Below, piece after piece: positions 1,274 through 21,375 of a DNA stretch of 64,000 nt. The notes beneath the pieces were generated by a model. That model was not told where the DNA came from. It did not search any database and saw only the letters and a list, made by a program, of their open reading frames with translations. Every line of letters begins with the position of its first letter. Position 1 is the first letter of the stretch. The position numbers and the translations under genes were made by a program. This DNA is from an uncultured Spirochaetota bacterium. Its GTDB lineage: Bacteria > Spirochaetota > Spirochaetia > SZUA-6 > CAVTHK01. The stretch is taken from assembly GCA_963734495.1 (NCBI GenBank), contig CAVTHK010000001.1:1-64000 (forward strand), in the 5' to 3' direction.

Positions 1274-1283
1274 TGACCCATCC

Positions 1284-2495: not shown

Positions 2496-2577
2496 ATACT
2501 TATTAAGGCCTCCCCCTCGGAGGTACGGTAGGATACCTACCGTCGCTCAACTAAACGATTTTGAGGAGGAGGCCACG

Positions 2578-3624: not shown

Positions 3625-3910
3625 TGAGAGAAAGGGACAGGGTGTGCAGCAAACCTGTCACGCCTAACTGGACTGCCATCCCTGTGCGCGCTCTATGTTC
3701 GGGCAAGTCCCACGATTTGATTGGTCGCACACCCTGGTCCCGTTTTCTCTGTGCACGACAACGGAACACCGATACGCGGTCTGCCCCGCGCCGAGCCGCA
3801 AAAGTAACTGAGGCACCGCGAGGTGACCCCCTTTTTTGATTCGGACGGCGGTCGGGCACCAATAGTCTTCTAGAGCGCTTCGGGCGACTCTCGATACGTG
3901 TTTGGTGCAG
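3625..3910 (+). ncRNA. putative bridge/seek RNA of IS110 copy 1 (same in copies 2-3, slightly diverged in copy 4)
   Basis: Hairpin 3627-3750 whose internal loop holds GCCTAAC and ACGATTTG (attC target); second hairpin 3856-3908 holds ATACGTG (IS end plus core); RNA boundaries approximate. Confidence 0.75.
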
Positions 3911-4237
3911 GCTGCGTTCCTGCACCCATCGCAGAAACCAAGTCGGACCAACTTGTCGGGTGTTCTTGCGCAGTCCCGAGGCAGCCACACGGTTGTCAGG
4001 ACTTCTCACGCCTCTTGACGAGGGAAGGCCTTATACGTGTTAGGCTGCCAACGCAGCCAGCCAACGCTCCACGGACTTGCAGCCTTGGCTTTGGCCGGCC
4101 TCCGTGATGCTGAACCTGGCCTGGTTGGGCTTGTCACCAGTCTGCACCGCCATCACGGAGATGAGTCTATCCGGCCCATCGACGGAGCGGTGGTGATCTG
4201 TGCGTTGCCCAGGACGTAGTGGCAACGGCGAGTAGCT

Positions 4238-4474
4238 CTACAGTGAATGAACACAGTATTTGTACAACAACCCTCTGATGAGCAGCTTTGTGGTTCCGTC
4301 TGCCGCGATCAAGTAGCAGGGTGGAGAGGGGCTCTGCACCATTTCGATGAGCAGACCCTTCTCCTTGAGCGCACCAAGAGTCTTGTAGAGCGCAGGAGCG
4401 TTCTCGGCCACGGTCTTGTTGATGTCCGGCAGCCGGTTTCGATAGATGGCTTGGCCCATCCCGTATGGCGCCAC
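4238..4474 (-). CDS. short or truncated cassette ORF, unknown function
   Basis: Best ORF in cassette 4039-4587; no clear start or RBS. Confidence 0.35.
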   Translation of the reverse strand: MAPYGMGQAIYRNRLPDINKTVAENAPALYKTLGALKEKGLLIEMVQSPSPPCYLIAADGTTKLLIRGLLYKYCVHSL

Positions 4475-4580
4475 GACTGCAAGCTCTGCGCATGCTTCGC
4501 CCTCTTTGGCCAGTGTAGCGTGCGCAGACGGCGGGCGATCAGCAAGCCCATAGGCACGCCGCTCGGTCGCGTTCGACGCG

Positions 4581-4687
4581 ACATAACATAGAGTTGAGTA
4601 GCGCCGCCGAGGCTCCCCAGCTCACAGTGTAGTCGAGCCTCGCCGACCGTGCCAGTCGGCCCTTCAGGCGTCTACTCCAACGATTTG
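4581..4687 (-). repeat. attC: attC site 4, interrupted by IS110 copy 2 (remainder at 6231-6237)
   Basis: attC consensus ending CAACGATTTG; GTTATGC after the IS. Confidence 0.92.
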
Positions 4688-6229
4688 ATACTTATTAAGG
4701 CCTCCCCCTCGGAGGTACGGTAGGATACCTACCGTCGCTCAACTAAACGATTTTGAGGAGGAGGCCACGATGCACTTCTACAGCCGACAGCACCGATTCT
4801 ATTGCGGGATCGATCTGCACGCAAGGAGCATGTACGTCTGCATCATCGATTCTTCGGGGGCGGTGGTCTTCCACCGCAACCTGCCCACCGACCGCCAGCA
4901 GCTCGTGGAGGCGATCGGGCCCTACAAGGAGGACATCGTTGTCGCGGTCGAGTGCATCTTCACCTGGTACTGGATCGCCGACGTGTGCGCCGAGCAGGCG
5001 ATCCCGTTCGTCCTGGGTCACGCGCTGTACATGAAGGCGATTCACGGCGGCAAGACCAAGAACGACAAGATCGACTCACAGAAGATCGCGGGGCTGCTGC
5101 GCGGCGGCCTGCTGCCTCTCGCCTACGCTTACCCCCAGGCCATGCGCTCCACCCGCGATCTGCTTCGCCGCCGCATGTACCTCATGCACCACCAGAGCGA
5201 GCTGCTGGCCCACATCCAGAACACCAACGCGCAGTACAACCTGGCGGCCTTTGAGAAGCGCATCAACTACCGTGGTAATCGGGCCGAGCTCGGCGAGCAT
5301 TTCCAGGACCCGATGGTGAGAAAGAGCGTCGAGGCTGACAGCGAGGTCCTCGACACTCTCCACAAAGTGCTGCTGAAGCTCGAGGGCGCGGTCCTGGAGC
5401 AAGCCCGTGATCACGATCCGGCGACTCTGCAGTTGATCCGCAGCGTTCCCGGCATCGGCAAGGTGTTGTCTCTGGTGATCCTCTATGAGATCCAGGACAT
5501 CGGCCGCTTCCCCACGGCGGGAAACTTCATCTCCTACGCGCGGCTGGTCAAATGCGCCCGCGAGTCTTCAGGAAAGAAGAGTGGATCGCGCAACTCAAAG
5601 ATCGGCAACGTCCACCTCAAGTGGGCCTTCTCCGAGGCGGCCGTGACGTTCTTGCGCAACAACGAGCCCGCCCAGCTCTATCACCACAAGCTCGTCGCCA
5701 AGTACGGCAAGGCCAAGGCTCTGTCGATCATCGCGCAGAAGCTCGGCCGCACCCTCTACTTCATCCTCAAGCACAAGGAGGCTTTCGACCCCCTGCGTTT
5801 TTACCAAGGAGGTTGATGAGAGAAAGGGACAGGGTGTGCAGCAAACCTGTCACGCCTAACTGGACTGCCATCCCTGTGCGCGCTCTATGTTCGGGCAAGT
5901 CCCACGATTTGATTGGTCGCACACCCTGGTCCCGTTTTCTCTGTGCACGACAACGGAACACCGATACGCGGTCTGCCCCGCGCCGAGCCGCAAAAGTAAC
6001 TGAGGCACCGCGAGGTGACCCCCTTTTTTGATTCGGACGGCGGTCGGGCACCAATAGTCTTCTAGAGCGCTTCGGGCGACTCTCGATACGTGTTTGGTGC
6101 AGGCTGCGTTCCTGCACCCATCGCAGAAACCAAGTCGGACCAACTTGTCGGGTGTTCTTGCGCAGTCCCGAGGCAGCCACACGGTTGTCAGGACTTCTCA
6201 CGCCTCTTGACGAGGGAAGGCCTTATACG
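4688..6229 (+). mobile_element. IS110 copy 2
   Basis: Appears identical to copy 1 (offset 2192); TG flanks. Confidence 0.95.
4770..5816 (+). CDS. IS110 transposase
   Basis: Identical 348-aa protein. Confidence 0.96.
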   Translation: MHFYSRQHRFYCGIDLHARSMYVCIIDSSGAVVFHRNLPTDRQQLVEAIGPYKEDIVVAVECIFTWYWIADVCAEQAIPFVLGHALYMKAIHGGKTKNDKIDSQKIAGLLRGGLLPLAYAYPQAMRSTRDLLRRRMYLMHHQSELLAHIQNTNAQYNLAAFEKRINYRGNRAELGEHFQDPMVRKSVEADSEVLDTLHKVLLKLEGAVLEQARDHDPATLQLIRSVPGIGKVLSLVILYEIQDIGRFPTAGNFISYARLVKCARESSGKKSGSRNSKIGNVHLKWAFSEAAVTFLRNNEPAQLYHHKLVAKYGKAKALSIIAQKLGRTLYFILKHKEAFDPLRFYQGG

Positions 6230-6303
6230 TGTTATGCGGCTCCAGGTTGAATGACAACCAAGCCGACTGCGTCATTGTGGTACGGCCTGACTACTCGGCG
6301 GTG

Positions 6304-6840
6304 TCATAGGCTCATCCTCATGTGGATATCATCAGGCTCGCGCGCGTACATCTCCGGGTCAGCTTGCGCGGTCGGGAGGAAGCCGACGCTCGTGTAGAAC
6401 CTGATCGTATTCTCCGACGGCGTAGCCGAAACATAGAGATACTTGGCGCCTAGCCTGCGGGCGTCGTCCTTGATCAGCGCGACCAGCTGCGTGCCGACCC
6501 CGATACCTCTGTAGCCTTTGCTGACCCAGAGGCCCGATAGGTTGACCATGTTCCTATCGGACTCCATTGGGTTGCGATTCAGGATCGCCATCCCCACAAG
6601 CCGGGTGCCATCTCGGGCACCGTAGACGGCGGCACCCTCGGACAGGCGCCGCCTGATCCTTTCGACGCGACAAGCCTTTTCCTGCGGCTTCCAGTCAGGT
6701 ATGTCCTGGTGGTCGTCATGGAGAGTAAGTCGACCATTGTGCATTCGAAACACCCGGTCGACCTTTTCGCTGCGATCGAGGTCAATAAGCTGTGGAATAT
6801 CGGCGTCGGTAAGCTCTTTGTAGAGTATGGACGAACTCAC
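6304..6840 (-). CDS. GNAT N-acetyltransferase cassette
   Basis: LWVSKGYRGIGVGTQL acetyl-CoA motif A; NTIRFYTSVGF; GTG start after GGAGG. Confidence 0.9.
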   Translation of the reverse strand: MSSSILYKELTDADIPQLIDLDRSEKVDRVFRMHNGRLTLHDDHQDIPDWKPQEKACRVERIRRRLSEGAAVYGARDGTRLVGMAILNRNPMESDRNMVNLSGLWVSKGYRGIGVGTQLVALIKDDARRLGAKYLYVSATPSENTIRFYTSVGFLPTAQADPEMYAREPDDIHMRMSL

Positions 6841-7041
6841 GGGTCGCCTCCCATAGGGTATGCCGCTCATGCGGCAAGAACCTGCAACGGTACCTGGGGA
6901 TCACGAGGAGGAAGGCGGGAACAGGATGTGGCGTTGCGGGCGACCTGTCAACTCATCGTTTCGTGACAGAAGCGTTGTCGGAAAGGCACTCCCGACCGTC
7001 ATGAGGCAGGGCTGTTTGCCTTTCGATCAACCCTCTGAGCC

Positions 7042-7149
7042 GCATAACATAGAGTTGAGTAGCGCCGCCGAGTAGCTCCCAGGCCCACAGTATAGTCGAG
7101 CCTCCCCGACCGTGCCAGCGGCCCTTCAGGCGTCTACTCCAACGATTTG
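7042..7149 (-). repeat. attC: attC site 5, interrupted by IS110 copy 3 (remainder at 8693-8699)
   Basis: attC consensus; GTTAGGT after the IS. Confidence 0.92.
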
Positions 7150-8691
7150 ATACTTATTAAGGCCTCCCCCTCGGAGGTACGGTAGGATACCTACCGTCGC
7201 TCAACTAAACGATTTTGAGGAGGAGGCCACGATGCACTTCTACAGCCGACAGCACCGATTCTATTGCGGGATCGATCTGCACGCAAGGAGCATGTACGTC
7301 TGCATCATCGATTCTTCGGGGGCGGTGGTCTTCCACCGCAACCTGCCCACCGACCGCCAGCAGCTCGTGGAGGCGATCGGGCCCTACAAGGAGGACATCG
7401 TTGTCGCGGTCGAGTGCATCTTCACCTGGTACTGGATCGCCGACGTGTGCGCCGAGCAGGCGATCCCGTTCGTCCTGGGTCACGCGCTGTACATGAAGGC
7501 GATTCACGGCGGCAAGACCAAGAACGACAAGATCGACTCACAGAAGATCGCGGGGCTGCTGCGCGGCGGCCTGCTGCCTCTCGCCTACGCTTACCCCCAG
7601 GCCATGCGCTCCACCCGCGATCTGCTTCGCCGCCGCATGTACCTCATGCACCACCAGAGCGAGCTGCTGGCCCACATCCAGAACACCAACGCGCAGTACA
7701 ACCTGGCGGCCTTTGAGAAGCGCATCAACTACCGTGGTAATCGGGCCGAGCTCGGCGAGCATTTCCAGGACCCGATGGTGAGAAAGAGCGTCGAGGCTGA
7801 CAGCGAGGTCCTCGACACTCTCCACAAAGTGCTGCTGAAGCTCGAGGGCGCGGTCCTGGAGCAAGCCCGTGATCACGATCCGGCGGCTCTGCAGTTGATC
7901 CGCAGCGTTCCCGGCATCGGCAAGGTGTTGTCTCTGGTGATCCTCTATGAGATCCAGGACATCGGCCGCTTCCCCACGGCGGGAAACTTCATCTCCTACG
8001 CGCGGCTGGTCAAATGCGCCCGCGAGTCTTCAGGAAAGAAGAGTGGATCGCGCAACTCAAAGATCGGCAACGTCCACCTCAAGTGGGCCTTCTCCGAGGC
8101 GGCCGTGACGTTCTTGCGCAACAACGAGCCCGCCCAGCTCTATCACCACAAGCTCGTCGCCAAGTACGGCAAGGCCAAGGCTCTGTCGATCATCGCGCAG
8201 AAGCTCGGCCGCACCCTCTACTTCATCCTCAAGCACAAGGAGGCTTTCGACCCCCTGCGTTTTTACCAAGGAGGTTGATGAGAGAAAGGGACAGGGTGTG
8301 CAGCAAACCTGTCACGCCTAACTGGACTGCCATCCCTGTGCGCGCTCTATGTTCGGGCAAGTCCCACGATTTGATTGGTCGCACACCCTGGTCCCGTTTT
8401 CTCTGTGCACGACAACGGAACACCGATACGCGGTCTGCCCCGCGCCGAGCCGCAAAAGTAACTGAGGCACCGCGAGGTGACCCCCTTTTTTGATTCGGAC
8501 GGCGGTCGGGCACCAATAGTCTTCTAGAGCGCTTCGGGCGACTCTCGATACGTGTTTGGTGCAGGCTGCGTTCCTGCACCCATCGCAGAAACCAAGTCGG
8601 ACCAACTTGTCGGGTGTTCTTGCGCAGTCCCGAGGCAGCCACACGGTTGTCAGGACTTCTCACGCCTCTTGACGAGGGAAGGCCTTATACG
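7150..8691 (+). mobile_element. IS110 copy 3
   Basis: Near-identical to copy 1 (one T>A amino-acid change, DPAT>DPAA); TG flanks. Confidence 0.95.
7232..8278 (+). CDS. IS110 transposase
   Basis: 348 aa with DEDD motifs. Confidence 0.96.
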   Translation: MHFYSRQHRFYCGIDLHARSMYVCIIDSSGAVVFHRNLPTDRQQLVEAIGPYKEDIVVAVECIFTWYWIADVCAEQAIPFVLGHALYMKAIHGGKTKNDKIDSQKIAGLLRGGLLPLAYAYPQAMRSTRDLLRRRMYLMHHQSELLAHIQNTNAQYNLAAFEKRINYRGNRAELGEHFQDPMVRKSVEADSEVLDTLHKVLLKLEGAVLEQARDHDPAALQLIRSVPGIGKVLSLVILYEIQDIGRFPTAGNFISYARLVKCARESSGKKSGSRNSKIGNVHLKWAFSEAAVTFLRNNEPAQLYHHKLVAKYGKAKALSIIAQKLGRTLYFILKHKEAFDPLRFYQGG

Positions 8692-8768
8692 TGTTAGGTG
8701 GACCCCGTCCGCGAGCGAGTCCGACTAGCGAGCTGCCGCCAGCACGAAGCCACGCGGCTGCCTAGGGG

Positions 8769-9372
8769 TCAGCGGGTCCTGAGTGCCCGATCGTAGACGT
8801 ACTTCTGCATGGAGTAGTCGTCTGGATACTCGCGTTGTGCACGGCCTTTCGCTGGCGAGCTCGTCGACACGGCTCATGTATGACTTTGCGGAAAACTGCT
8901 GGTCATAGGCGTACTTTTGCATCGAATAGTCGTCGGGATACTCCCGTACGGCGATCCCTTTGACTTCCGGATCTCCGACCACAGCCATGTAGCGCTTTGC
9001 CGAAAGTTGTTGATCGTAGACGTATTTCTGCATGGAGTAGTCGCCGGGATGCTCTCTGGCGGCAATGGCCTTAATTTCGGCGTCGTCAACCGTTCCGATG
9101 CATCGTTTTGCCGCGGTCTGTTGGTCGTACACGTATTTCTGCATCACGAAGTCCTCGGGGTGCTCGCGAAGCGCAATTGCCCTGGTCTCTGGGTCGGCCA
9201 CCGTGCCCATGTAGCGATACGCAGACAGCTGCTGATTGTAGACGTACTGCTGCAGGTGCGCATCGTTAGGGTATTCGCGTTCCGCAAACGCCCGTAGACG
9301 CGACTCAATCGGCTGCGCGGCCGCAGCCGCGGAGAGGCAGAGAACGAGAATCCACGCCGGTGCCTTTCTCAT
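8769..9372 (-). CDS. secreted 37-aa tandem-repeat protein cassette (frameshift near 8855)
   Basis: Signal peptide MRKAPAWILVLCLSAAAAA; repeats RE(H/Y)PxDYxMQKYVYDQQ; fifth repeat continues in another frame to a TGA at 8769. Confidence 0.8.
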
Positions 9373-9389
9373 GCAAACCTCCAAGGGCC

Positions 9390-9504
9390 ACATAACATAG
9401 AGTTGAGTAGCGCCGCCGAGGAGCTACCTGATCCACAGCATAGTGAAGCCTTTCCGACCGTGCCAGTCGGCCTCTCAGGCGTCTACTCCAACGATTTGTT
9501 GGGC
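9390..9504 (-). repeat. attC: attC site 6 (empty)
   Basis: ACATAACATAGAG...CAACGATTTGTTGGGC. Confidence 0.92.
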
Positions 9505-9516
9505 AGGCACCGGCGG

Positions 9517-9879
9517 TCACCGGGTGTCACGTCGGATGACAATAGCGTGCATGCCGGCCTCGTTATGCTTTTCGTGGATCAGATCCATCTCTTCCGGAGT
9601 GCACGACACCAGCAGCTTGATCTCTGCATCCATCTTGTTGAGATCCACGGTGCATGCGATAGCGTCGATTCGCCCGGAACCACTTGTGCCTTGCCATACG
9701 TCCGTTTCGTGTCCGTCCGCGGAGATGGTCTCTGCCAGGTAGCCGTAGTCCACGGGATAGACGAAATCTGCGAATCGGGGATGGCGACTGCCCTTTGGTC
9801 GATCGATAATGATGCGCTTCGACTGAACAAGGGTGTCGAGGGCTTGCCAATAGGCGGCATTGTCAGCGTTTGAAGCCAA
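9517..9879 (-). CDS. small inorganic pyrophosphatase-like protein cassette
   Basis: IDRPKGSRHP...YPVDYGYL...DGHETDVW motif; probable TTG start after GGAG. Confidence 0.8.
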   Translation of the reverse strand: MASNADNAAYWQALDTLVQSKRIIIDRPKGSRHPRFADFVYPVDYGYLAETISADGHETDVWQGTSGSGRIDAIACTVDLNKMDAEIKLLVSCTPEEMDLIHEKHNEAGMHAIVIRRDTR

Positions 9880-10217
9880 AGAGATCTCCTGCCCTGGCGT
9901 CACAATTTGCGCACAGCCACGCCGCGCGGTTGCTTGCAGCGATTCTATGTCCGTTGGCGCAGTCCTGCAACATTGGTGTTGGGCACTCGCACGTTGGGAA
10001 ACGGAGCCCAACGGTTGCGCGCCACAAAGCGAAGCTGAGACGAGGTCAAGGCCGTATTGATGGTACGCCGCCAGGCCACCCGAGGAGGCAGCTGCGATCT
10101 CAGCGGGGATCTCGGCATGCGTGAGCGAGGGGTGTTGTGTCTCGCTTGCGCAACGTTCCTTCCGGCTCCGGGTCGCCCGCGGCGAAGACTTTGATCGCAT
10201 GGCTAAGCGTCGTGACT

Positions 10218-10331
10218 GCCCAACATAGAGTTGAGTAGCGCCGCCGAGTAGCTCCCCAGCTTCCATGTACTGTAGCCTCCTCGGCCGTGCCAGCCGGCCC
10301 TTCAGGCGTCTACTCCAACGATTTGTTGGAT
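10218..10331 (-). repeat. attC: attC site 7 (empty)
   Basis: GCCCAACATAGAG...CAACGATTTGTTGGAT. Confidence 0.92.
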
Positions 10332-10403
10332 GGCCTTCGTCTGCAGCATGCTGCGCTGCCCTTGCGTACAGTGGACTCCGAGCAGGCCAACGGGTACACT
10401 CTC

Positions 10404-10844
10404 TTACGCGCCTCGCGCCCGCTTCCAGGTAACCCTGACCGTTGGCGATTTGCCCTTCACTTGAGCCGCCGGGCCAGTAAGTATCAACCTGTCGCCGTCG
10501 AGCGTTACGGCTCGCTCGATAGCGGTACCCGCCCAGTTTGGAAACAGGCTAACTTCGATTCGATGCACTACGCCGTCGCGGCCCGTCTCATACCTGCCGC
10601 TGTATGATAGGTAGCCGTCAAATGCGGTGGCCTTTTCCTGCGGTGTACCGTCATGGCCAGCGAATCCGCTCGCCACAAACGGCGGACGGTCACCCGACAT
10701 CACGGCAACGGACATGAAGCCGTCTGCGGCGTATAGAATGTACCCAACTGGCGTCTGCCCATAGGGGTACCGAATCTCGCCAGTGTCAGCTATGACTTCG
10801 AACGAGATAAGGGACCACCTGCCAACAAGTGGGGACCCGGCCAT
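10404..10844 (-). CDS. lipocalin-like domain protein cassette
   Basis: LVGRWSLISF...GYILYAADGFMSV...YLSYSGRY...PNWAG pattern. Confidence 0.85.
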   Translation of the reverse strand: MAGSPLVGRWSLISFEVIADTGEIRYPYGQTPVGYILYAADGFMSVAVMSGDRPPFVASGFAGHDGTPQEKATAFDGYLSYSGRYETGRDGVVHRIEVSLFPNWAGTAIERAVTLDGDRLILTGPAAQVKGKSPTVRVTWKRARGA

Positions 10845-11137
10845 TGCTTCCCTCCCAATTTGGGATGTCGAGGTTGCTGCGGCACCTATGTGCACCGTTT
10901 CCAATACAAACCCACGGCCCGCTGTCGCCTAATAGGTACCGGAGCCTTGGCGCGCCCGTTGGTGGGCGGCCGCGTTCCATACTGTAGTCGCCAAGCCTCG
11001 CGCTCGCAAGTCAATCGGTTCGCTTCAGTTGCTGCCCGTCGGCGTAGCGGGGCCTGGCACGAGCGTTACTGTAGTAGCAGCCCCACTCCATGGCTGGACG
11101 GTCGAGTGCCCCCGATCAGTAACCGAAACTCAGGTCC

Positions 11138-11261
11138 ATCCAACGAAGAGTTGAGCAGCCGCGGATTAATTACCGAAGTGGCTACCTGCACACATTGTAA
11201 CGCCCCCTCGGCTCACCGTGCCAGCGGGATCATAGCGGTCTGCTCAAACGACTTGTTATGT
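11138..11261 (-). repeat. attC: attC site 8 (variant type, empty)
   Basis: ATCCAACGAAGAGTTGAGCAGCCGC...GCGGTCTGCTCAAACGACTTGTTATGT. Confidence 0.88.
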
Positions 11262-11938
11262 GCGCCAGTCTCACCGCCACTCGCCCAGCCAGCCGGGGGG
11301 CTCATGTCTGCGGCAGGGGTCGTCGACCCCGGGCTTGCGCCACCCTGTCAGGCGCCCCTGGCTCCGTGAGGCCCGTCGGCTACCAGGGTGTCTATGGCGA
11401 GGGCGGCGAGAGCCGCGGTGGCGAGCAGCAGCGCGCAGTTACTTTTCGCCCTGGGAGGGCCGCCTCCATCGCGTTTCGGCTCGCCGAAGCGGACAGATGC
11501 GCCTGCGATCCTGTGGCGGCTCGCACCGTAGATGGGCGGGCCTGCCCGCTGCGCTGCGTAGTGAGCCGCGGCGGGTCATGGGCTGCGAGCCGTTGCATGA
11601 GCAAGGATGCCTTTCGATGTCGGCTCGGGTGTATGGAGCGAGTCTGAAGGAGAGCAGTTCGGCGGTGACGGTTAACAGGCTGGTCCCGAGCCGCCGAGAA
11701 AGAGCAGTCCCCTCCCAGGGCGAACAGGACGCTGAAAGCGTAATCTTTCAAGCCCTGCCCCCCGGGTGCAGCGGAGGGTAGGCAGTGACGAGGCGGAACA
11801 TGTGGCGATAAGGAAGGCAGAGAACCGGGCGAGGGCCGCGGGCGAACGGTGTCCGACCCCAAGGATACTTCCCTGCCCAGTTCGCTGTGAGCCTATCGAT
11901 CTCTGATGCCGGCCAAATCGCGACAGGGTGCACATAAC
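11255..11938. other. ORF-less cassette, copy A (candidate structured ncRNA)
   Basis: Bounded by GTTATGTGC / GCACATAAC; no convincing ORF shared with copy B; many internal inverted repeats. Confidence 0.75.
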
Positions 11939-12046
11939 GAAGAGTTGAGCAGCCGCGCCGAAGTGGCTACCTGAACACATTGTAACGCCCCCTCGGCTCA
12001 CCGTGCCAGCGGGATCTTAGCGGTCTGCTCAAACGACTTGTTATGT
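11932..12046 (-). repeat. attC: attC site 9 (variant type, empty)
   Basis: Near-identical to attC 8. Confidence 0.88.
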
Positions 12047-12725
12047 GCGCCAGTCTCACCGCCACTCGCCCAGCCAGCCGGGGGGCTCATCTCTGCGGCA
12101 GGGGTCGTCGACCCCGGGCTTGCACCACCCTGTCAGGCGCCCCTGGCTCCGTGAGGCCCATCGGCTGTCAGGGTGTCTATGGCGAGGGCGGCGAGGGCCG
12201 CGGTGGCGAGCAGCAGCGCGCAGTTACTTTTCGTCCTGGGAGGGGCCGCCTCCATCGCGTTTCGGCTCGCCGAAGCGGACAGATGCGCCTGCGATCCTGT
12301 GGCGGCTCGCACCGTAGATGGGCGGGCCTGCCCGCTGCGCTGCGTAGTGAGCCGGGGCGCGTCATGGGCTGCGAGCCGTTGCATGAGCAAGGATGCCTTT
12401 CGATGTCGGCTCGGGTGTATGGAGCGAGTCTGAAGGAGAGCAGTTCGGCGGCGACGGTTAACAGGCTGGTCCCGAGCCGCCGAGAGAGAGCAGTCCCCTC
12501 CCAGGGCGAACGGGACGCTGAAAGCGCAATCTTTCACGCCCTGCCCCCCGGGTGCAGCGGAGGGTAGGCAGTGACGAGGCGGAACATGTGGCGATAAGGA
12601 AGGCAGAGAACCGGGCGAGGGCCGCGGGCGAACGGCGTCCGACCCCAAGGATACTTCCCTGCCCAGTTCGCTGTGAGCCCGTCAGGTCTCTGATGCCGGC
12701 CAGTTCGCGACAGGGTGCACATAAC
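12040..12725. other. ORF-less cassette, copy B
   Basis: Tandem, slightly diverged duplicate of 11255-11938. Confidence 0.75.
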
Positions 12726-12827
12726 ATAGAGTTGAGCTGCGCCGCCGCAAGCTCCCGAGCATCCAGTCTATACCAGCCCTGCCGGCCGTGCCAGGTCGGC
12801 CGTTAAGGCGTCAGCTCCAACGATTTG
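12719..12827 (-). repeat. attC: attC site 10, interrupted by IS110 copy 4 (remainder at 14370-14376)
   Basis: attC consensus; GTTAGGT after the IS. Confidence 0.92.
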
Positions 12828-14368
12828 ATACTTATTAAGGCCTCCCCCTCGGAGGTACGGTAGGATACCTACCGTCGCTCAACTAAACGATTTTGAGGAG
12901 GAGGCCACGATGCACTTCTACAGCCGACAGCACCGATTCTATTGCGGGATCGATCTGCACGCAAGGAGCATGTACGTCTGCATCATCGATTCTTCGGGGG
13001 CGGTGGTCTTCCACCGCAACCTGCCCACCGACCGCCAGCAGCTCGTGGAGGCGATCGGGCCCTACAAGGAGGACATCGTTGTCGCGGTCGAGTGCATCTT
13101 CACCTGGTACTGGATCGCCGACGTGTGCGCCGAGCAGGCGATCCCGTTCGTCCTGGGTCACGCGCTGTACATGAAGGCGATTCACGGCGGCAAGACCAAG
13201 AACGACAAGATCGACTCACAGAAGATCGCGGGGCTGCTGCGCGGCGGCCTGCTGCCTCTCGCCTACGCTTACCCCCAGGCCATGCGCTCAACGCGCGATC
13301 TGCTTCGCCGCCGCATGTACCTCATGCACCACCAGAGCGAGCTGCTGGCCCACATCCAGAACACCAACGCGCAGTACAACCTGGCGGCCTTTCAGAAGCG
13401 CATCAACTACCGTGGTAATCGGGCCGAGCTCGGCGAGCATTTCCAGGACCCGATGGCGAGAAAGAGCGTCGAGGCTGACAGCGAGGTCCTCGACACTCTC
13501 CACAAAGTGCTGCTGAAGCTCGAGGGCGCGGTCCTGGAGCAAGCCTGTGATCACGATCCGGCGGCACTGCAGTTGATCCGCAGCGTTCCTGGCATCGGCA
13601 AGGTGTTGTCTCTGGTGATCCTCTACGAGATCCAGGACATCGGCCGCTTCCCCACGGCGGGAAACTTCATCTCCTACGCGCGGCTGGTCAAATGCGCCCG
13701 CGAGTCTTCAGGAAAAAAAAGCGGATCGCGCAACTCAAAGATCGGCAACGTCCACCTCAAGTGGGCGTTCTCGGAGGCGGCCGTGACGTTCTTGCGCAAC
13801 AACGAGAGCGCCCAGCTCTATCACCACAAGCTCGTCGCCAAGTACGGCAAGGCCAAGGCTCTGTCGATCATCGCGCAGAAGCTCGGCCGCACCCTCTACT
13901 TCATCCTCAAGCACAAGGAGCCTTTCGACCCCGTGCGTTTCTACCAAGGAGGTTGATGAGAGAAAGGGACAGGGTGTGCAGCAAACCTGTCACGCCTAAC
14001 TGGACTGCCATCCCTCTGCGTTCTCTGTATTCGGGCAAGTCCCACGATTTGATTGGTCGCACACCCTGGTCCCGTTTTCTCTGTGCACGACAACGGAACA
14101 CCGATACGCGGTCTGCCCCGCGCCGATCCGCCAAAAGTAACTGAGGCTCCGCAAGGTGACCCCCTTTCTTGATTCGGACGGCAGTCGGGAACCAAATGTC
14201 TTCTAGAGCGCCTCGGGCGACTCTCGATACGTGTTTGGTGCAGGCTGTGTTCCTGCATCCATCGCTGAAACCAAGTCGGACCAGTTTATCGGAGTTCTTC
14301 CCAGGCCAGCGGCAACCACACGGTTGTCAGGACCCGTTACGCCTCTTGACGCCGGGAGGCCTTATACG
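12828..14368 (+). mobile_element. IS110 copy 4 (diverged variant)
   Basis: Same termini and TG flanks; scattered substitutions from about 13290 onward. Confidence 0.95.
12910..13956 (+). CDS. IS110 transposase (variant)
   Basis: 348 aa with a few substitutions relative to copy 1. Confidence 0.95.
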   Translation: MHFYSRQHRFYCGIDLHARSMYVCIIDSSGAVVFHRNLPTDRQQLVEAIGPYKEDIVVAVECIFTWYWIADVCAEQAIPFVLGHALYMKAIHGGKTKNDKIDSQKIAGLLRGGLLPLAYAYPQAMRSTRDLLRRRMYLMHHQSELLAHIQNTNAQYNLAAFQKRINYRGNRAELGEHFQDPMARKSVEADSEVLDTLHKVLLKLEGAVLEQACDHDPAALQLIRSVPGIGKVLSLVILYEIQDIGRFPTAGNFISYARLVKCARESSGKKSGSRNSKIGNVHLKWAFSEAAVTFLRNNESAQLYHHKLVAKYGKAKALSIIAQKLGRTLYFILKHKEPFDPVRFYQGG

Positions 14369-14424
14369 TGTTAGGTTGTTCCCGTTCGCCCTGGGCGGTT
14401 CCGGTGCGAACCGAGCTGGTCTCA

Positions 14425-15273
14425 TCACATGACTCGACCCGCGATCGCGACCCTGTACCAGAACATCAGGCCGAAAGGGTGCTCCTTAAGGACACGCATT
14501 TCGGACTCAGCAGACCGGAACTCCTCCACGCGAATTAGCCCGGTAGATATCAGCTGATCCCGCCAATTGTCTGGAATGCTTGAGTCAAAGAAAGCCCGGA
14601 TGGTCTTGCCCCTGTCGCCGAAGGTACCCGATAGCCGCAGTGCAACATTGTCGGCAGGAAAGTATGGGTTGACTTCGATTTCGGTCAGGCCCACTGCGGC
14701 AAAAGACGCGTGCAGATGCCTGCCACAGCGAAAGTCGAGGTAGCGGGTGTCGGCTGCGGGAGTCAGGTTCTGGGCCAGCCCTTCAAGCACCTTGATAACC
14801 GAGGGACAGTCGGGGTATAGGAACAAGTCTGATAGGCTTGCCACTATCGCGAGCACTTGGCCACCCGAACGAGTGACTCGTTTCTGTTCCCGCAGAGCCT
14901 TCAGCGGGTCACGTAACCAGTCGAACAAACCGTTGGTGTAGCACAGGTCAAATACGCCGTCCTGATACGGGAGAGCATACGCGTCGCCTACGTCAAAGGT
15001 TGCGTTTCGCACGCCCGCGTCCGTGGCTATGGAAGCGCACCGGGCTATGTTGGCCGCCACAGAATCAAGCCCCTTGACTTCGCCGGGCTGGACAACGGAG
15101 GCGACGTCAACGGTTATCTGTCCCTCACCACATCCAACGTCGAGAACCGACATGCCGGGATGGAGGAATTCGACTAACGGTTGGCAGCTGTCGTGCAAGG
15201 TGCGAGTCCGAAAAGCGCCCATTCGGTCGAACTTCCCGAACTCGTCGCCCTCCGTCTCTGCCGGTTGCTTCAC
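14425..15273 (-). CDS. class I SAM-dependent methyltransferase cassette
   Basis: VLDVGCGEG motif I; GDAYALPYQDGVFD; probable GTG start after GGAGG. Confidence 0.9.
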   Translation of the reverse strand: MKQPAETEGDEFGKFDRMGAFRTRTLHDSCQPLVEFLHPGMSVLDVGCGEGQITVDVASVVQPGEVKGLDSVAANIARCASIATDAGVRNATFDVGDAYALPYQDGVFDLCYTNGLFDWLRDPLKALREQKRVTRSGGQVLAIVASLSDLFLYPDCPSVIKVLEGLAQNLTPAADTRYLDFRCGRHLHASFAAVGLTEIEVNPYFPADNVALRLSGTFGDRGKTIRAFFDSSIPDNWRDQLISTGLIRVEEFRSAESEMRVLKEHPFGLMFWYRVAIAGRVM

Positions 15274-15462
15274 GCGTGACCTCCAACGCCGAGCCGCAGA
15301 GAGACATTGCAGCCGCGCCTGAAGCTGCTCAGCCAGAAGTCTAGCGTATGGCGGCAGTGAAAACAATAGTCATGGGGGAACGGACGCCTAAGGCGCCCGA
15401 GAAGGTTGTCCACGTGATGGTTACCGCACCGCGACAAAGCCCCACCGTCCAGCGCCTGAACA

Positions 15463-15577
15463 ACCTAACATAGAGTTGAGTAGCGCCGCCGAATTGCTAC
15501 CCAGCTCACAGCATAGTTGAGCCTCCCCGACCGTGCCAGCCGGCCCTTCAGGCGTCTACTCCAACGATTTGTTATGT
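15463..15577 (-). repeat. attC: attC site 11 (first in array, empty)
   Basis: ACCTAACATAGAG...CAACGATTTGTTATGT. Confidence 0.92.
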
Positions 15578-15616
15578 CTCTCCAGCCTGAGTGGCGGACC
15601 TGTCGCACACAGCCGG

Positions 15617-16471
15617 CTACTTGAGTGATTCCGCCAAGAAATCCCAAACGGTCTGATCCAATTGGTCTGTGTGGCCGCGCCCACTCTCTACTATCAGCGT
15701 GTGAGACGCGCCCGCTTTCTTCATTCGTGCGTCCAGCAGCAGCGCCTGATCCAGGGAGACGGAGACATCCTTGTCCCCATGGATGGTCAATATTGGCGTC
15801 GTGCCCGGTTTGACATAGTTGATGGGACTTGCCTTTTCGTACTCTTCACGCTTCGCCTGAAGAGAGCCCCCTAAATACGCACTCACGTATGGTTCTCGGT
15901 TCCAACTAACGAGGTCCGTTGCCCCCGAGAGATTGACGACCGCTTGCACGGAGCTCGAGTACTGAAGATAGTCGTCCCGCCCTTCGAGCCCGTCTGCCGG
16001 AACCGTCAGCCCCAGCAGCAGCGCCAAGTTTCCTCCTGATGAGAAGCCAACGACGCCAATGCGTGCTGGATCGATGTCATACTGCGCAGCATTTGCCCTG
16101 AGAAACCGTATGGCGCTCTTGACATCATAGACTTGCGCCGGGAAGATCCCGATAGGTCGGCGGTTGGAGTTCTCTACCGACGCACTATAATCTACAGCGA
16201 CTCCGACATATCCCCTCTGATTGGCAAGATCCAGGGCGTACCAGAATCCCTCCCGGTTAAGAGTCTTGTCGTATCCCCAACCGTTGCCGCAAAGAAACAC
16301 AATTGCCGGCTTCGCAACGCCTAGCGGCTGAGGTCTCTGAATGTCCATCTGAAGTTCTCTGCCATTTATCACCCGATAGGGGACCGCATAGGTTTCAACG
16401 GACGTCTGCGCATGTAGGGATGCAACCGAAACCGACACAATGATGGACACGCCAATGATGCTGACTTTCAC
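15617..16471 (-). CDS. secreted alpha/beta hydrolase (esterase/lipase), first cassette
   Basis: GFSSGG nucleophile elbow, HGDKD, GRGH; signal-like N-terminus. Confidence 0.88.
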   Translation of the reverse strand: MKVSIIGVSIIVSVSVASLHAQTSVETYAVPYRVINGRELQMDIQRPQPLGVAKPAIVFLCGNGWGYDKTLNREGFWYALDLANQRGYVGVAVDYSASVENSNRRPIGIFPAQVYDVKSAIRFLRANAAQYDIDPARIGVVGFSSGGNLALLLGLTVPADGLEGRDDYLQYSSSVQAVVNLSGATDLVSWNREPYVSAYLGGSLQAKREEYEKASPINYVKPGTTPILTIHGDKDVSVSLDQALLLDARMKKAGASHTLIVESGRGHTDQLDQTVWDFLAESLK

Positions 16472-16599
16472 CGACCTCTCCACCTTACTATGCGACCGCG
16501 GGCCGCGACTCAGAAGAGTCTGCCGGAGGCACCTTCTTCTGTCAACGCCCCCCGCCGCAAAGCGTTTCCGTCGCACCGATCAACGACACAATCAGAGAG

Positions 16600-16660
16600 A
16601 CATAACATATTGTGTCGCCGGCAGCCGTCGACCGCTTGCACAACGTTGTCGACCGACTCG
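16600..16660 (-). other. attI: attI site (approximate)
   Basis: ACATAAC core closes the first cassette but is not followed by attC consensus; lies directly upstream of intI. Confidence 0.7.
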
Positions 16661-16761
16661 CGAAGCGTCGAGGCGCGCCACATGGGCGGCGACGCATGCA
16701 GCAGAACCTCAGCCCGCGTTTATCTTATGTGGCCACTGGCGAAAACGCAAACGGGAAAGGG

Positions 16762-18042
16762 ATGCCGCCGCAAGGACTTCCCTTTGAGCTCTACCTTCTG
16801 CGGGTCGCACGGATGCCCGTCAGGATCATCCCATGGATGCGCCACTGGGTGAGGCAATACCCCAGCGTGGCGGATACCCAACCCGCAGGGCGCGCGGCGG
16901 CGCTGGAGCGATTGGCATCTGAGCTGTCCCCCAAGCATGAGCGTGCAGCAGTAGAGCAGGCGTGCCAGGCGGTCAGACACTACTGGTTCTGGCTGGATCG
17001 CTGGCGCCCCGCCGGTGACCCGCAGCACCAGGCGGCGCCAGAGGACGATCGGGAACGGCTGATCGACGAGGCCTGTCGGCTCATGCGCCTGCAGCACAAA
17101 TCGTACCGTACGGAAAGGACTTATCTCGCCTGGATACGGCGCTTCTTCTCGTTTCCGCCGACAGCCAGGAGCCCAGCGATCGACGGGAGCTGCCTTACCC
17201 GCTACCTGACCTTCCTCGCCGTGGAGCGCAGGGTGTCTTCGTCCACACAGCAGCAGGCCTTCAATGCCCTGCTCTTTCTCTTCCGGTCCGTCCTGAATCA
17301 GTCCGTTGATGGGATTGCCTGCGCAGTCAGGGCACGTAGAACGTCGCGTCTCCCTGTCGTGCTCTCGCCGGGTGAAGTAGCGGGGTTGATCGGTCACCTC
17401 TCGGGGCAGTCCCGGCTCATGGCCGAGGTGATCTACGCCGCAGGTCTCCGTCTCCACGAGTGTCTATCGCTCCGCGTGCAGGACCTGGACTTCGACGCTG
17501 AAACTCTCACGGTGCGTCGAGGCAAGGGCCAGAAGGACCGGAGGGCCCTCTTCCCGCCGACGTTGCACAAGGCGATGCAGGGTCACCTGCGCCACGTGCG
17601 CGCGATCTACGAGCAGGACCGCCGCAGCGGCCTTCCCGGGGTACCGCTGCCGGACGCACTGGAGCGCAAGTACCCGAACGCGACCACCGAGTGGCGCTGG
17701 TTCTGGGTTTTTCCATCCGGTCGGCACTCGATCGATCCCCGCACCGGCAAGGTCTACCGATACCACGTCTACCCGACGACTCTTCAAAAGAAGGTGCAGC
17801 AGGCAGTCCGCGAGCTCGGTTTTGCGAAGCAGGCCACCGTGCACTCGCTGAGACACAGCTTTGCGACCCATCTGATCGAAGCTGGCTACGACATCCGTAC
17901 GATTCAGGAATTGCTGGGGCACTCGCACGTGGAGACAACCATGATCTATACTCATGTCGCTCAGCGCAACAAGGCGGGAGTGGTGAGCCCCTTGGAGCGG
18001 CTCAACGCGCGCTACCCTGCGCCCGGTCGTCCGGACGGCTGA
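16762..18042 (+). CDS. intI: integron integrase
   Basis: Tyrosine recombinase motifs (GLRLHE, HSLRHSFATHL, LLGHSHVETTMIYTH) plus the IntI-specific LPDALERKYPNATTEWRWFWVFPS insert; divergent from the cassettes; start uncertain. Confidence 0.96.
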   Translation: MPPQGLPFELYLLRVARMPVRIIPWMRHWVRQYPSVADTQPAGRAAALERLASELSPKHERAAVEQACQAVRHYWFWLDRWRPAGDPQHQAAPEDDRERLIDEACRLMRLQHKSYRTERTYLAWIRRFFSFPPTARSPAIDGSCLTRYLTFLAVERRVSSSTQQQAFNALLFLFRSVLNQSVDGIACAVRARRTSRLPVVLSPGEVAGLIGHLSGQSRLMAEVIYAAGLRLHECLSLRVQDLDFDAETLTVRRGKGQKDRRALFPPTLHKAMQGHLRHVRAIYEQDRRSGLPGVPLPDALERKYPNATTEWRWFWVFPSGRHSIDPRTGKVYRYHVYPTTLQKKVQQAVRELGFAKQATVHSLRHSFATHLIEAGYDIRTIQELLGHSHVETTMIYTHVAQRNKAGVVSPLERLNARYPAPGRPDG

Positions 18043-18179
18043 TCGTCCGACCGACCGCGGACGCACGGGGGGACGCATGGAGGTTGCCGTCACTTGCTCC
18101 GAAAGTTGTGCTGCCACGCGCGCGAGCGCAGACATGGGTGCGCGCAGCCGGCGTACCGCGCTCTCGGCGTAGTCAGCGC

Positions 18180-18642
18180 CTAGTGCACGTGGCCGTGATC
18201 GAGCTCTTCGGCGGTCGCTTCGCGGACGTCCTTGATTTCCACGTCAAAGTGAAGGCCCACGCCCGCCAGTGGATGGTTCCCATCGACCGTGACCTGCTCG
18301 TCGCCGATCTCGGTGACGGTAAAGATCTTCTCGCCGTCGTCGGTGCTCACATGGAACCGCGATCCGACTTCGAGGTCCTTGACCTCGCTGAACTGCGAGC
18401 GCGCGACCTGGACCACGAGTCTCTCGTCGCGCTCGCCGTAGCCGTCGGCCGCGGCCAGCGACACCTCCCGTCGATCGCCCGGGCTGGCGCCCTCGAGCGC
18501 CGACTCGAGGCCGGTGATGATGTGCCCGTTCCCGTGCAGGTACCGCAAGCGGCTCCCGCCCCTGCGACGAATCGAGGACGGTGCCCGAGCTGTCCTTGAG
18601 GGTGTAGTCGATCGCGACCACCCTGTTCCTGGCGACCTGCAT
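18180..18642 (-). CDS. slyD: SlyD-like FKBP peptidyl-prolyl isomerase (frameshift near 18548)
   Basis: VVAIDYTLKD...YLHGNGHIITGLE...DGNHPLAG...EELDHGHVH. Confidence 0.88.
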
Positions 18643-18755
18643 GAGTCCTCCGCCTGAAAACAAAGAGCGCCGGAAGCGGAGCTTCCCGCCCGCCCCAGCG
18701 CTCATCAAGAGCCTGCCGCGAAACCAGGCCTGTGTGGCACTACGCGAGACGCGAC

Positions 18756-19016
18756 CTACCCCGGTTTCGCCTCGTTGCCCTCGTTGCCGCCTTCCGCGTC
18801 GTCGCCCTCGCCCTCCGCGCCTTCCGCGTCAGCGGCCTCATCCTCCGGCTCCGCCGGGAGTCCGAGATACTCGCGCACGAGGGCGTCGGCGTCTTCAGCC
18901 GGCTCGGCGCCCGGCTCACCCTTGTGAAGCCGGCGCTCGCGCTTGGCCGCCTGCTTGGCCTGTCGTTCCTTTTCCTTGCGCCGCTTGGCTGCGTTGTGCT
19001 GTGATCCTCTTGGCAC
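18756..19016 (-). CDS. small basic/acidic hypothetical protein
   Basis: KRRKEKERQAKQAAKRERR followed by an acidic tail; directly downstream of the RRM gene. Confidence 0.6.
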   Translation of the reverse strand: MPRGSQHNAAKRRKEKERQAKQAAKRERRLHKGEPGAEPAEDADALVREYLGLPAEPEDEAADAEGAEGEGDDAEGGNEGNEAKPG

Positions 19017-19019
19017 CTG

Positions 19020-19439
19020 CTATTCCTCTCGACGGGCGAACGGCCGCCGGCCTTCGCGCGAGAGGTAGCCGCGAGACTCGTACCCGCCGCGGCCGTAGCC
19101 GCCGCCGCCGCCCCCGCCGCCCCCGCCGTAGTCGTCGCGTCCGCCGCCGCCGTAACCACCGCGTCCGCCGCCGCCGCCGCCCCGGCCTTCACCCTGGGGC
19201 TTCGCCGCGTTCACGCGAAGCTGGCGCCCGCCAACTTCCTGGCCGTTCAGCGCGTTGATGGCGCCATCGGCGGCCTCGCTGGTCCCCATCTCGACGAACG
19301 CGAACCCCCGCGGCCTCCCGGTCGCCCGGTCGTACACGACGCTGACGCTGACGACCTCGCCATACGGCGCGAACAGGTCGCGCAGCTCGTCTTCGGTGGT
19401 CGAGTAGCTCATGTTGCCCACGTAAATCTTGCTCGGCAC
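19020..19439 (-). CDS. RRM RNA-binding protein with Gly-rich tail
   Basis: KIYVGNM (RNP2) and RGFAFVEM (RNP1). Confidence 0.93.
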   Translation of the reverse strand: MPSKIYVGNMSYSTTEDELRDLFAPYGEVVSVSVVYDRATGRPRGFAFVEMGTSEAADGAINALNGQEVGGRQLRVNAAKPQGEGRGGGGGGRGGYGGGGRDDYGGGGGGGGGGYGRGGYESRGYLSREGRRPFARREE

Positions 19440-19713
19440 AGATCCTCCCTCCGCCGCTCCCCCGCGACGAAGCCATGCAGTAAGCGCCGCCCTTCCAGCG
19501 GACGCCCGACGCCCTTTACACGGGCGCCATTCTTTCTACAGAGCGGTTACCGGCTGTGTCAGGAGTTGAATCGACGAGCCGACCGCGCTGCTGCATCTGC
19601 GGCCTCATACGGCGGCGGGATTCAAAGCCATGCGGACCTGCGGGGCTCCACTCACCAAAAGAACGACGGGCAAAGAACGTCTTTCGAGCGCACAAGCGCC
19701 CTTTTCGCCGGTG

Positions 19714-19742
19714 AGTATACCCAATTAACGGTTTTCGGTCAA
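19714..19742 (-). promoter_or_regulatory. sigma70 promoter for the RRM gene
   Basis: Minus strand TTGACC-N17-TATACT. Confidence 0.7.
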
Positions 19743-19890
19743 AGGACAAAAGTGAAGGCGGCCGCCCCCCGCCCCGCTCCCCCGGCGGTCTCGCGCTGCC
19801 GCCGCGGGCAATCTGCCGCCGCCCTCAAGCGCCTCGCGGCGCAAGGGGCCGCGCCGCGGCCGCGGGCAACGGGCGCGCCCGGCGACCGCG

Positions 19891-21375
19891 TCAGTAGGCC
19901 CTGACCCGCCGGACCCCCGCGCCACTGGTGGCCATGACCGCGTCGATGTGCTGCTTGAGGAGCCGGCAGCGCAGCTGATCGAGGCCCGGCCGGTCCCACA
20001 GGTTGTCGAACTCGCCGGGATCCTGCTCCAGGTCGTAGATCTCGCCGATCTCGTGTCCGTGGTACAGGGCGACCTTGTACCGGCCGTCGAAAGACATCGT
20101 GCCGTGCGACGCGTCGTAGCCGCGGCCGGTGGTGCCCGTGCCCATGGCGTCGTTGTACTCGCTCACCACGATCCGCTTGTGGCTGTGCAGGTCGGAGCGC
20201 CCTTCCAGGAGGCCCGCGAGCGATCTGCCCTGCACGGTGTCGGGGATCGCGAGCCCCGCCAGCTCGAGCAGCGTCGGAGCGACGTCGACCAGCTCCACGA
20301 GCGCGCTGCTCACGGAGCCCTCGAGCACGGCGCGCGGCCGCGAGACGATCAGCGGGACGTGGACCAGCCCCTCGAAGAAGCGGCAGCCCTTGAACAGCAG
20401 GCCGTGGTCGCCGAGGAGCTCGCCGTGATCGCTCATGAAGACGACGATCGTGTCGTTCGCCTGGCCGCCCTCGTCGATCGCCTCCAGGATGCGTCCGAGC
20501 TGCGTGTCTACGAGCTCGATCTCGCCGTAGTAGCAGGCCTTGAGCAGCCTCGGGTCGTAGCCACCGGGCGGCGTCGACGCCAGCCGGTCCCTCGGCAGGT
20601 CGAGCTTCGCGCCGGCGCGGCGCTCGGCCTCGTGCGGGCTCACGGCCTCGACGGTCTGCTGGTCGATGGATGCGAAGAGCCGCTGCCTCGCGACGTCGCT
20701 CTCGCGGAAAAGCGGATAGGACAAAGCCTGCGGGTCGTAGCGCTCCAGGAACTCCCGCGGGGGATGAAAGGTCGGGTGCGGGGCGAAGGGGTTGACGCTC
20801 AGCAGCCAGGGCTGATCGCGTTTGCGGCGGATGAACTCGATGGCCTTCTCCGTGCACCACGTCGTCTGGTGCAGCTCCGCGGGGAGGCCGACGCCGTAGG
20901 AGCCGCTGATGGCCGAAAAAGCCTCCACGGGGTCAACGCCCTTCGCGTCGCGCAGCCAGTCGGTGTACTCGTTGCCCTCGATGTCGGGGTACGGATGGTG
21001 GCTCCAGGCGTAGGTGCGGTAGCCGTCGTCCGAGCGGCGCTCGCGCTCGCCCTTGGAGGCGGCCAGGTGCAGCTTACCCACGAGGCCGCAGTCGTAGCCC
21101 GCGTCGGCGAACATGCGGGTCACCAGCGTCTCGCCCGGCGGGAAGTACTCGTTGCCGTTGCGGTGCACATGGTGGGTGGCCGGGTAGCGGCCGGTCAGGA
21201 ACGAGGCTCGGCTCGGCGTGCAGATCGGCGACTGGCAGTAGGCCCTGCGGAACGCGACCCCGCTCGCCGCGAGGCCGTCGAGCACCGGCGTGTGGATCTC
21301 CCGCGCGCCGAGGGCGTGGATCGTGTCGGAACGCTGCTGGTCCGTGCAGTACCAGAGGATGTTGGGTCGGTTCAT
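19891..21375 (-). CDS. sulfatase
   Basis: PNILWYCTDQQR, CTPSRAS (FGly motif), GKLH, SDHG. Confidence 0.93.
   Translation of the reverse strand: MNRPNILWYCTDQQRSDTIHALGAREIHTPVLDGLAASGVAFRRAYCQSPICTPSRASFLTGRYPATHHVHRNGNEYFPPGETLVTRMFADAGYDCGLVGKLHLAASKGERERRSDDGYRTYAWSHHPYPDIEGNEYTDWLRDAKGVDPVEAFSAISGSYGVGLPAELHQTTWCTEKAIEFIRRKRDQPWLLSVNPFAPHPTFHPPREFLERYDPQALSYPLFRESDVARQRLFASIDQQTVEAVSPHEAERRAGAKLDLPRDRLASTPPGGYDPRLLKACYYGEIELVDTQLGRILEAIDEGGQANDTIVVFMSDHGELLGDHGLLFKGCRFFEGLVHVPLIVSRPRAVLEGSVSSALVELVDVAPTLLELAGLAIPDTVQGRSLAGLLEGRSDLHSHKRIVVSEYNDAMGTGTTGRGYDASHGTMSFDGRYKVALYHGHEIGEIYDLEQDPGEFDNLWDRPGLDQLRCRLLKQHIDAVMATSGAGVRRVRAY

Follow-up and report, generated by a model that had tools for sequence, protein, structure and literature searches.

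Within the first 64,000 nucleotides of contig CAVTHK010000001.1 (GenBank assembly GCA_963734495.1), a stretch from an uncultured Spirochaetota bacterium that we refer to as the window, two neighboring units of about 790 bp, here termed cassettes A and B, are real integron cassettes that occupy positions 3 and 4 of a minus-strand chromosomal array. Based on their boundaries, their mutual similarity and the lack of a credible gene in either, we propose, with a probability of roughly 0.7, that they are paralogs derived from a single gene-less cassette. An earlier note on the same DNA had read the pair as carriers of a selected, structured RNA or single-stranded DNA (ssDNA) of about 680 nt on the plus strand. 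We posit that the apparent structure would instead have three components: the two complementary core halves of attC, present at the ends of every cassette; one real inverted repeat of 15/16 bp around about 250 nt; and chance complementarity at 66% GC, aided by G.U pairs on the G-rich plus strand.

The array, which belongs to a chromosomal integron and begins at intI, takes up the window's first ~16.6 kb. The intI gene is a plus-strand open reading frame (ORF) at 16612-18042, divergent from the cassette array, which combines the Pfam domains Phage_integrase (1.6e-34) and Phage_int_SAM_4 (6.3e-18) and whose nearest ESM Atlas clusters carry the name ‘integron integrase family protein’ with a score of 0.99; the true start of this integron integrase gene probably lies downstream of 16612. 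A repeat of ~115 nt is found again and again across positions 1-15600, and five of these array repeats (486, 1443, 9388, 10216 and 15461), not including the sites S1 and S2 described below, were used to build an attC covariance model, which recovered 11 plus-strand sites at E<1e-9 in positions 1-20000, spread from 486 to 15579. As the genes between the attC sites are on the minus strand, the array is read on that strand, away from intI. The assertion in the earlier note that the plus strand is antisense to the array is thus borne out by the direction shown by both the cassette ORFs and intI.

With the G|TT in each core site taken as the boundary, as read from the sequence, cassette A extends over 11144-11937 (794 bp, minus strand), with its content at 11263-11937 followed by attC S1, and cassette B over 11938-12724 (787 bp, minus strand), with its content at 12048-12724 followed by attC S2. 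The cassette ends read GTTATGT and ACATAAC, which are mutually complementary and each one position off the integron core-site consensus GTTRRRY/RYYYAAC. Matches to the attC model lie on both sides of cassette A, and the model found no attC-like match within either cassette content. Site S1 (11136-11263; 43.1 bits, E 3.2e-10) forms the 3' end of cassette A in the array direction and folds into an imperfect hairpin; it aligns with S2 (11930-12048; 65.3 bits, E 1.9e-16; DNA fold z-score -2.65), which belongs to cassette B, and the two are near-identical, being separated by a 9-nt insertion and two substitutions. This AT-rich insertion (GATTAATTA, 11162-11170) is present in S1 and missing from S2, their scores being 43 versus 65 bits. 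S3 (12717-12835; 100.6 bits) belongs to the upstream methyltransferase cassette and is of the other type, common in the array; it is interrupted at about 12828 by an insertion sequence (IS). Because S1 and S2 are near-identical while S3 differs in type, the duplicated unit comprises the content together with the attC to its left, and this agrees with the minus-strand direction of the array.

Compared as contents 11263-11929 (A) and 12048-12716 (B), each of ~670 nt, the two copies share 97% identity and are separated by 20 substitutions (15 of them transitions) and two 1-nt indels, confirming that they are diverged tandem copies as had been noticed earlier. One of the indels falls in a G run (GGG/GGGG; 11459/12244) and could be an assembly error. 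The second copy would have arisen by integrase-mediated excision and re-insertion, or else by unequal exchange between attC sites, after which the copies would have drifted ~3% apart, and neither a reading frame nor a fold shows detectable constraint.

The earlier description of the pair as ORF-less holds only insofar as the cassettes lack a credible gene; open frames with a start codon reach 174 aa, as expected at 66% GC. Start-codon ORFs of up to 173-174 aa are indeed present on both strands of the cassettes, and, of 1000 dinucleotide shuffles, 211 and 239 contain a stop-free stretch as long as the longest ones seen here (181 and 193 aa, respectively). The long ORFs display no codon-position signal, their GC at the three positions ranging from 0.68/0.65/0.68 to 0.69/0.68/0.70, as compared with a second-position GC of 0.38-0.54 in eight real genes of the window. 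Among codons changed between A and B, nonsynonymous differences (11-15) exceed synonymous ones (3-7) in all six frames, a comparison of low power given just two copies. Searches with 10 stop-to-stop frames produced no credible hit, the best E-values being 0.073 in Pfam and 0.028 in NCBIfam (13.7 bits, where the cut-off is 550 bits), three frames had no match in a word-index search of 5.8 billion proteins, and none of 10 candidate ORFs is recorded as an exact sequence. A phmmer search with the 89-aa minus-strand frame against 1.84 billion representatives yielded two hits, at E 8e-9 and E 1.3e-5; each is a tandem-repeat pseudo-protein aligned in six stretches, and we judged both spurious. Likewise, 27 translated fragments compared by tblastn with the organism's own genome recovered attC matches and a single off-frame hit in a 91-aa junk frame (C1:140751-140972, E 0.002), which we rejected. 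In sum, no frame has a credible translated match and the two copies display no synonymous-site pattern; we conclude that the cassettes carry no credible gene, unless it be a very small or fully decayed one.

We then considered the folding of the two copies, with all z-scores measured against dinucleotide shuffles. Folded whole with their ends, the cassettes gave -6.1 (A) and -3.5 (B) on the plus strand and -1.8 on both minus strands (20 shuffles each), while two ordinary coding cassettes with their ends included gave -0.20 and -0.03 on the plus strand and -3.25 and -0.44 on the minus strand. The outermost 12-bp helix of the whole-cassette folds pairs GTTATGTGCGCC with GGTGCACATAAC, which are simply the two attC core halves flanking any cassette. 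For the content without these ends the values fall to -2.09 (plus) and -1.71 (minus) for A and -1.14 and -0.77 for B; in the same order, 2, 3, 8 and 18 of 60 shuffles folded as well as the content did. When 83 sliding 150-nt windows were examined across 8700-12800, none within the contents fell below -2.3, and the two in copy A that reached this value (at 11450 and 11500) have counterparts in B at -0.7 and -0.6. The plus strand contains 244 G against 206 C, and its shuffles show an equal energy offset; hence, its greater stability is chiefly a matter of G-rich composition. The strong fold z-scores rest on two features, the attC end helix and a single inverted repeat.

The left arm of this repeat lies at 11445-11459 in A and at 12230-12245 in B, where it has undergone a C>T change and gained one G, and the right arm lies at 11710-11724 in A and 12495-12510 in B. 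Perfect over 15 nt in A, it becomes a 16-bp repeat including one G.T pair in B, encloses about 250 nt and extends to 18 bp with one mismatch; furthermore, the heptamer CGGCTCG or its complement occurs five times inside it. All five pairs of complementary segments quoted in the earlier note are present as placed, save that GCCCCCCGG begins at 11757 and not at 11758. An excess over chance was not confirmed for them: five exact inverted repeats of at least 9 nt per 667 nt were matched in 6 of 300 shuffles of A and 10 of 300 of B, and were also found in 509 of 2949 random genome windows and in 2 of 18 control segments from the window. The repeat total is accordingly ordinary, and the 15-nt repeat is the sole outlier. 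The domain that it closes (11440-11729) has fold z-scores of -4.5 (plus) and -2.75 (minus) in A and -3.65 and -3.28 in B, all inflated by the domain having been picked after its ends were seen. With the stem removed, the interior yields -1.91 (A, plus), -0.19 (A, minus) and -0.65 (B, plus), and therefore the excess of the domain comes down to the inverted repeat, which is a feature of the DNA and as such open to both strands.

The differences between the copies offer a further view of any selected fold. The change TTCGCCC>TTCGTCC does replace a pair by G.U on the plus strand and by A.C on the minus strand, as had been pointed out, and such wobble-keeping changes were taken as a sign of selection; these examples are real but arise at the rate of chance. 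In the plus-strand fold of A, 14 of the 20 substitutions fall in pairs, of which 7 are kept and 7 broken, compared with 5.8 kept and 6.2 broken under random placement. On the minus strand with B as the reference, fewer substitutions fall in pairs and 3 pairs are broken against a null of 7.2 (P 0.008); we give this value no weight because it is one of four tests and the effect is absent with A as the reference (9 broken versus 7.7). RNAalifold detected no compensatory pairs among 225 (plus) and 211 (minus) predicted pairs, from an alignment of only two 97% identical copies. The substitutions in B raise its GC, yet its fold is only 2 kcal/mol stronger than that of A, whereas shuffles of B gain 10 kcal/mol. 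A scan of 10900-12950 with the 4227 families of Rfam gave no match at the gathering score nor at E<=10. A consensus scan of the same interval on both strands retrieved no sigma-70-like promoter, against a shuffle mean of 0.3, although the promoter type of the host may differ from the consensus. We also considered a group II intron, prompted by a GTGCG at the plus-strand start and by the antisense orientation that is characteristic of Group IIC-attC introns; this candidate was discarded in view of the lack of any group II match in Rfam and the presence of an intact attC on both sides, and the cassette frames contain no reverse-transcriptase domain in Pfam.

No full-length relative of the cassette was found. 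Its own 5.38-Mb genome holds no copy beyond A and B by BLAST, nhmmer or word-7 blastn, and 60 relatives, 92 order-level genomes and 401 phylum-level genomes contributed nothing but low-complexity matches of 20-45 nt. A genome of the same genus shares only one attC-like site with positions 8700-18100 of the window. One plus-strand and one minus-strand frame each were scanned against metagenome and genome contig collections, resulting in 349, 577, 448 and 198 pattern matches, none of them confirmed, in a procedure that detects close relatives only; a plasmid collection searched in distant mode gave no match. The sequencing runs listed as having words of the cassette include no RNA run. Small shares of these words occur in two DNA runs from soil metagenomes, one from each of two studies, and contigs of 201 and 151 nt from them match 11929-12129 and 11936-12080 with 11 and 6 differences, at 94-96% identity. 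These contigs span attC S2 and the first ~30-80 nt of the content, beyond which there are only low-complexity hits at 12181-12220. They establish the existence of a relative for at least the end of the cassette next to attC, and nothing more. The host is apparently a soil organism.

Wherever the checks laid out with the proposal of a selected ~680-nt plus-strand structure could be applied, their outcome gave it no support: the Rfam scan was empty, no compensatory pair separates the two copies, wobble-keeping changes arise at the chance rate and the content-only z-scores do not stand out on either strand. No full-length homolog came to light for a covariation analysis, and we regard this proposal as unsupported rather than disproved. 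Beyond the identification of the pair as gene-less cassettes, we lean, by a modest degree, towards their being neutral passengers that persist since any attC-joined DNA can be moved and copied. Several observations weigh against these readings. Neutrality is a default rather than a demonstrated state, and the retention of two copies after 3% divergence could reflect selection. The GC content of the pair (66-67%) resembles that of the host (67.8%) and not that of the protein-coding cassette segments in positions 1-16600 (56-60%), a disparity for which we have no explanation. Taken literally, the criteria for a gene-less cassette, namely no ORF >150 bp (Boucher) or >210 bp (Blanco), exclude this one, though only because of its GC content. 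With their ends, the plus strands of both copies have z-scores more negative than three of the four control cassette strands, and the plus strand of A is slightly but consistently stabler than its shuffles, be it as content, as repeat interior or in the two 150-nt windows. Finally, the perfect 15-nt repeat of A was exceeded in none of 300 shuffles and equalled or exceeded in 21 of 2949 random 667-nt genome windows, and both changes in the left arm of B allow plus-strand pairing, one through a U.G pair and the other through an extra G-C pair.

Among functional explanations, a promoter role is by analogy the most plausible, if still a rather doubtful one. A cassette of this kind would modulate transcription, in sense or antisense, and alter the expression of neighbors such as the downstream lipocalin-like gene, with two copies doubling the effect. 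Sense-strand promoter activity has been recorded for most of 29 gene-less Vibrio cassettes (PMC11014356), and Treponema ORF-less cassettes function as promoters (PMC6557892). Moreover, the IS in attC S3 separates the Pc promoter from B and A, so that the downstream cassettes may need a promoter of their own. This idea must be set against the empty sigma-70-like scan and the scarcity of AT-rich sequence at 66% GC; however, the negative scan is a weak argument because in-silico prediction disagreed with experiment in the report on Vibrio (PMC11014356) and the host may use another type of promoter.

A structured non-coding RNA or ssDNA on the plus strand, comprising either the whole ~680 nt or a multi-hairpin domain of ~280 nt under the 15/16-bp stem, appears unlikely. 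In its favor are the rarity of the 15-nt repeat, the lower plus-strand z-scores of the domain in both copies, the C>T change that yields a G.U pair on the plus strand only and the value of -2.09 for the content of A; in addition, the plus strand is the bottom strand, which is the one that folds during attC recombination. These points are countered by the lack of an Rfam match, of compensatory pairs and of any promoter-like or terminator-like site in 10900-12950, by a balance of kept and broken pairs close to the null, by the small energy gain of B relative to its shuffles and by the post hoc choice of the domain ends. Furthermore, the stemless interior is near -1.9 in A but only -0.65 in B, placing the excess in the repeat, and, of the four differences in the 201-nt soil contig located at predicted pairs, three would disrupt the pair as long as its unseen partner has not changed. 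In its narrower form, with a selected ~280-nt domain closed by the stem (11445-11724; 12230-12510) that acts as an antisense regulatory RNA or as an ssDNA fold affecting integrase handling, we consider this idea less probable still; if true, it would represent a cassette with structure rather than a gene as its cargo, of which there is no described example in this lineage. A small or decayed protein gene is, in our estimate, very improbable. The candidates would be the minus-strand frame of 87/89 aa (11672-11935; 12458-12727) or a 174-aa plus-strand frame broken in A by the G-run indel. The former is open in both copies with an ATG in or beside the core site, sits at the 5' cassette end in the array direction and includes a hydrophobic stretch, and a homopolymer is the site of one of the two indels. 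Yet neither ATG is preceded by a Shine-Dalgarno-like sequence, about 400 nt would be left non-coding, GC periodicity is missing, nonsynonymous changes dominate every frame, the exact sequence is not on record and the only two phmmer hits were judged spurious. The least probable explanation, to which we attach hardly any credence, is a DNA-level element, with the repeat delimiting a miniature transposable element or else serving as a protein-binding or recombination site. A perfect terminal-style 15-bp repeat (18 bp with one mismatch) around about 250 bp and the five occurrences of CGGCTCG or its complement are suggestive of such an element, but no further copy was found in the 5.38-Mb genome, no flanking target duplication is visible and the 92 order-level and 401 phylum-level genomes hold no relatives. 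A miniature inverted-repeat transposable element in particular was rejected, as the inverted repeat is present but dispersed genomic copies were not found.

The two gene-less cassettes reside in an array whose other members include, on the minus strand, genes for a BD-FAE hydrolase (15617-16576), a methyltransferase (14425-15366), a lipocalin-like protein (10404-10904), a GNAT protein (6304-6870) and a PIN protein (621-1229). The last of these couples a DUF6364-like N-terminus to a PIN domain in a single 202-aa frame; it may be a fusion, or the two members of a toxin-antitoxin pair may have been read together here. Another minus-strand cassette ORF (8725-9393, 222 aa) consists of five tandem repeats of 111 nt (37 aa) and has only a faint match to DUF7928. 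As the window is the beginning of its contig, the array runs off the contig end. Attachment sites of the same type were also seen on four further contigs, namely C9 (23.2-26.7 kb and 62.4 kb), C11 (1-1080), C13 (215.8-217.0 kb) and C18 (956-6097); C11 or C18 probably carries the continuation of the array, and besides this there are separate small attC clusters elsewhere in the genome. Outside the array, minus-strand riboswitches of the c-di-GMP-I (44317-44408, 61.6 bits) and fluoride (40032-40096, 53.1 bits) classes were detected at the Rfam gathering score.

The array has also been invaded by four near-identical plus-strand copies of an IS110-family IS of ~1.54 kb, encoding a 348-aa transposase, at about 2496-4038, 4688-6230, 7150-8692 and 12828-14369. 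The last of these, whose ends are approximate to 1-2 nt, is the one that interrupts attC S3, and it was recognized by repeat families and by the Pfam domains DEDD_Tnp_IS110 and Transposase_20 in its transposase (12910-13956). All four copies occupy the identical position in four attC sites, directly after ...CAACGATTTG and adjoining the G|TT crossover, in the manner of the IS1111-attC group. The transposase gene is followed by about 410 nt of non-coding DNA, and it is in this stretch that IS1111-type elements encode their guide RNA.

Gene-less cassettes are a recognized but poorly understood class, and to our knowledge their roles outside Vibrio, Treponema and Xanthomonas are almost unknown. 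If a promoter or RNA function were to apply here, known mechanisms would extend to a new lineage; as it stands, this is an ordinary orphan cassette. The pair nonetheless adds a high-GC, apparently soil-derived gene-less example and illustrates three ways in which such cassettes mimic a large structured RNA: pairing of the attC core halves, chance complements in GC-rich DNA and the gain of G.U pairs on a G-rich strand. For an RNA product of an ORF-less cassette the precedent is sRNA-Xcc1 of Xanthomonas campestris, which is said to be a trans-acting small RNA (sRNA) encoded by an integron cassette, in work attributed to Chen et al. of 2011. The candidate RNA considered here would be far larger, at about 280-680 nt, and matches no Rfam family, while the likeness to the Xanthomonas cassette-encoded sRNA, as it is summarized in later articles (PMC6557892, PMC8876359), lies in the precedent itself. 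Group IIC-attC introns are a second kind of attC-associated structured RNA (PMC8876359); unlike them, our pair has no group II model match at E<=10, has a complete attC on both sides instead of one split site and lacks a reverse-transcriptase ORF. With the gene-less promoter cassettes tested in four Vibrio superintegrons (29 cassettes, for most of which experiment found sense-strand activity that in-silico prediction did not match; Blanco 2024, PMC11014356) and those acting as promoters in Treponema (Tansirichaiya 2019, PMC6557892), it shares, so far as these accounts describe them, the absence of a gene, a place in an array and a location that, in the array direction, precedes cassettes with protein genes; it differs in that no consensus promoter was found, and scans of the genome collection revealed no relative. 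The closest parallel is provided by Vibrio arrays, in which 6-49% of cassettes are non-coding, often paralogous within the array and with homologs that are either very close or lacking (Boucher 2006, PMC1382264). Relative to the cassettes characterized in that study, ours comes from a host of 67.8% GC, apparently from soil, is present in two copies rather than up to 45, is ~790 bp long with chance ORFs >150 bp and thus outside the literal definition, and has no cross-species homolog that would reveal conservation. In common with them it is bounded by attC sites, offers no credible gene or translated match, has paralogs within its array and is without distant homologs, and hence the pair is a new, orphan member of a class already known, that of paralogous integron cassettes without genes.

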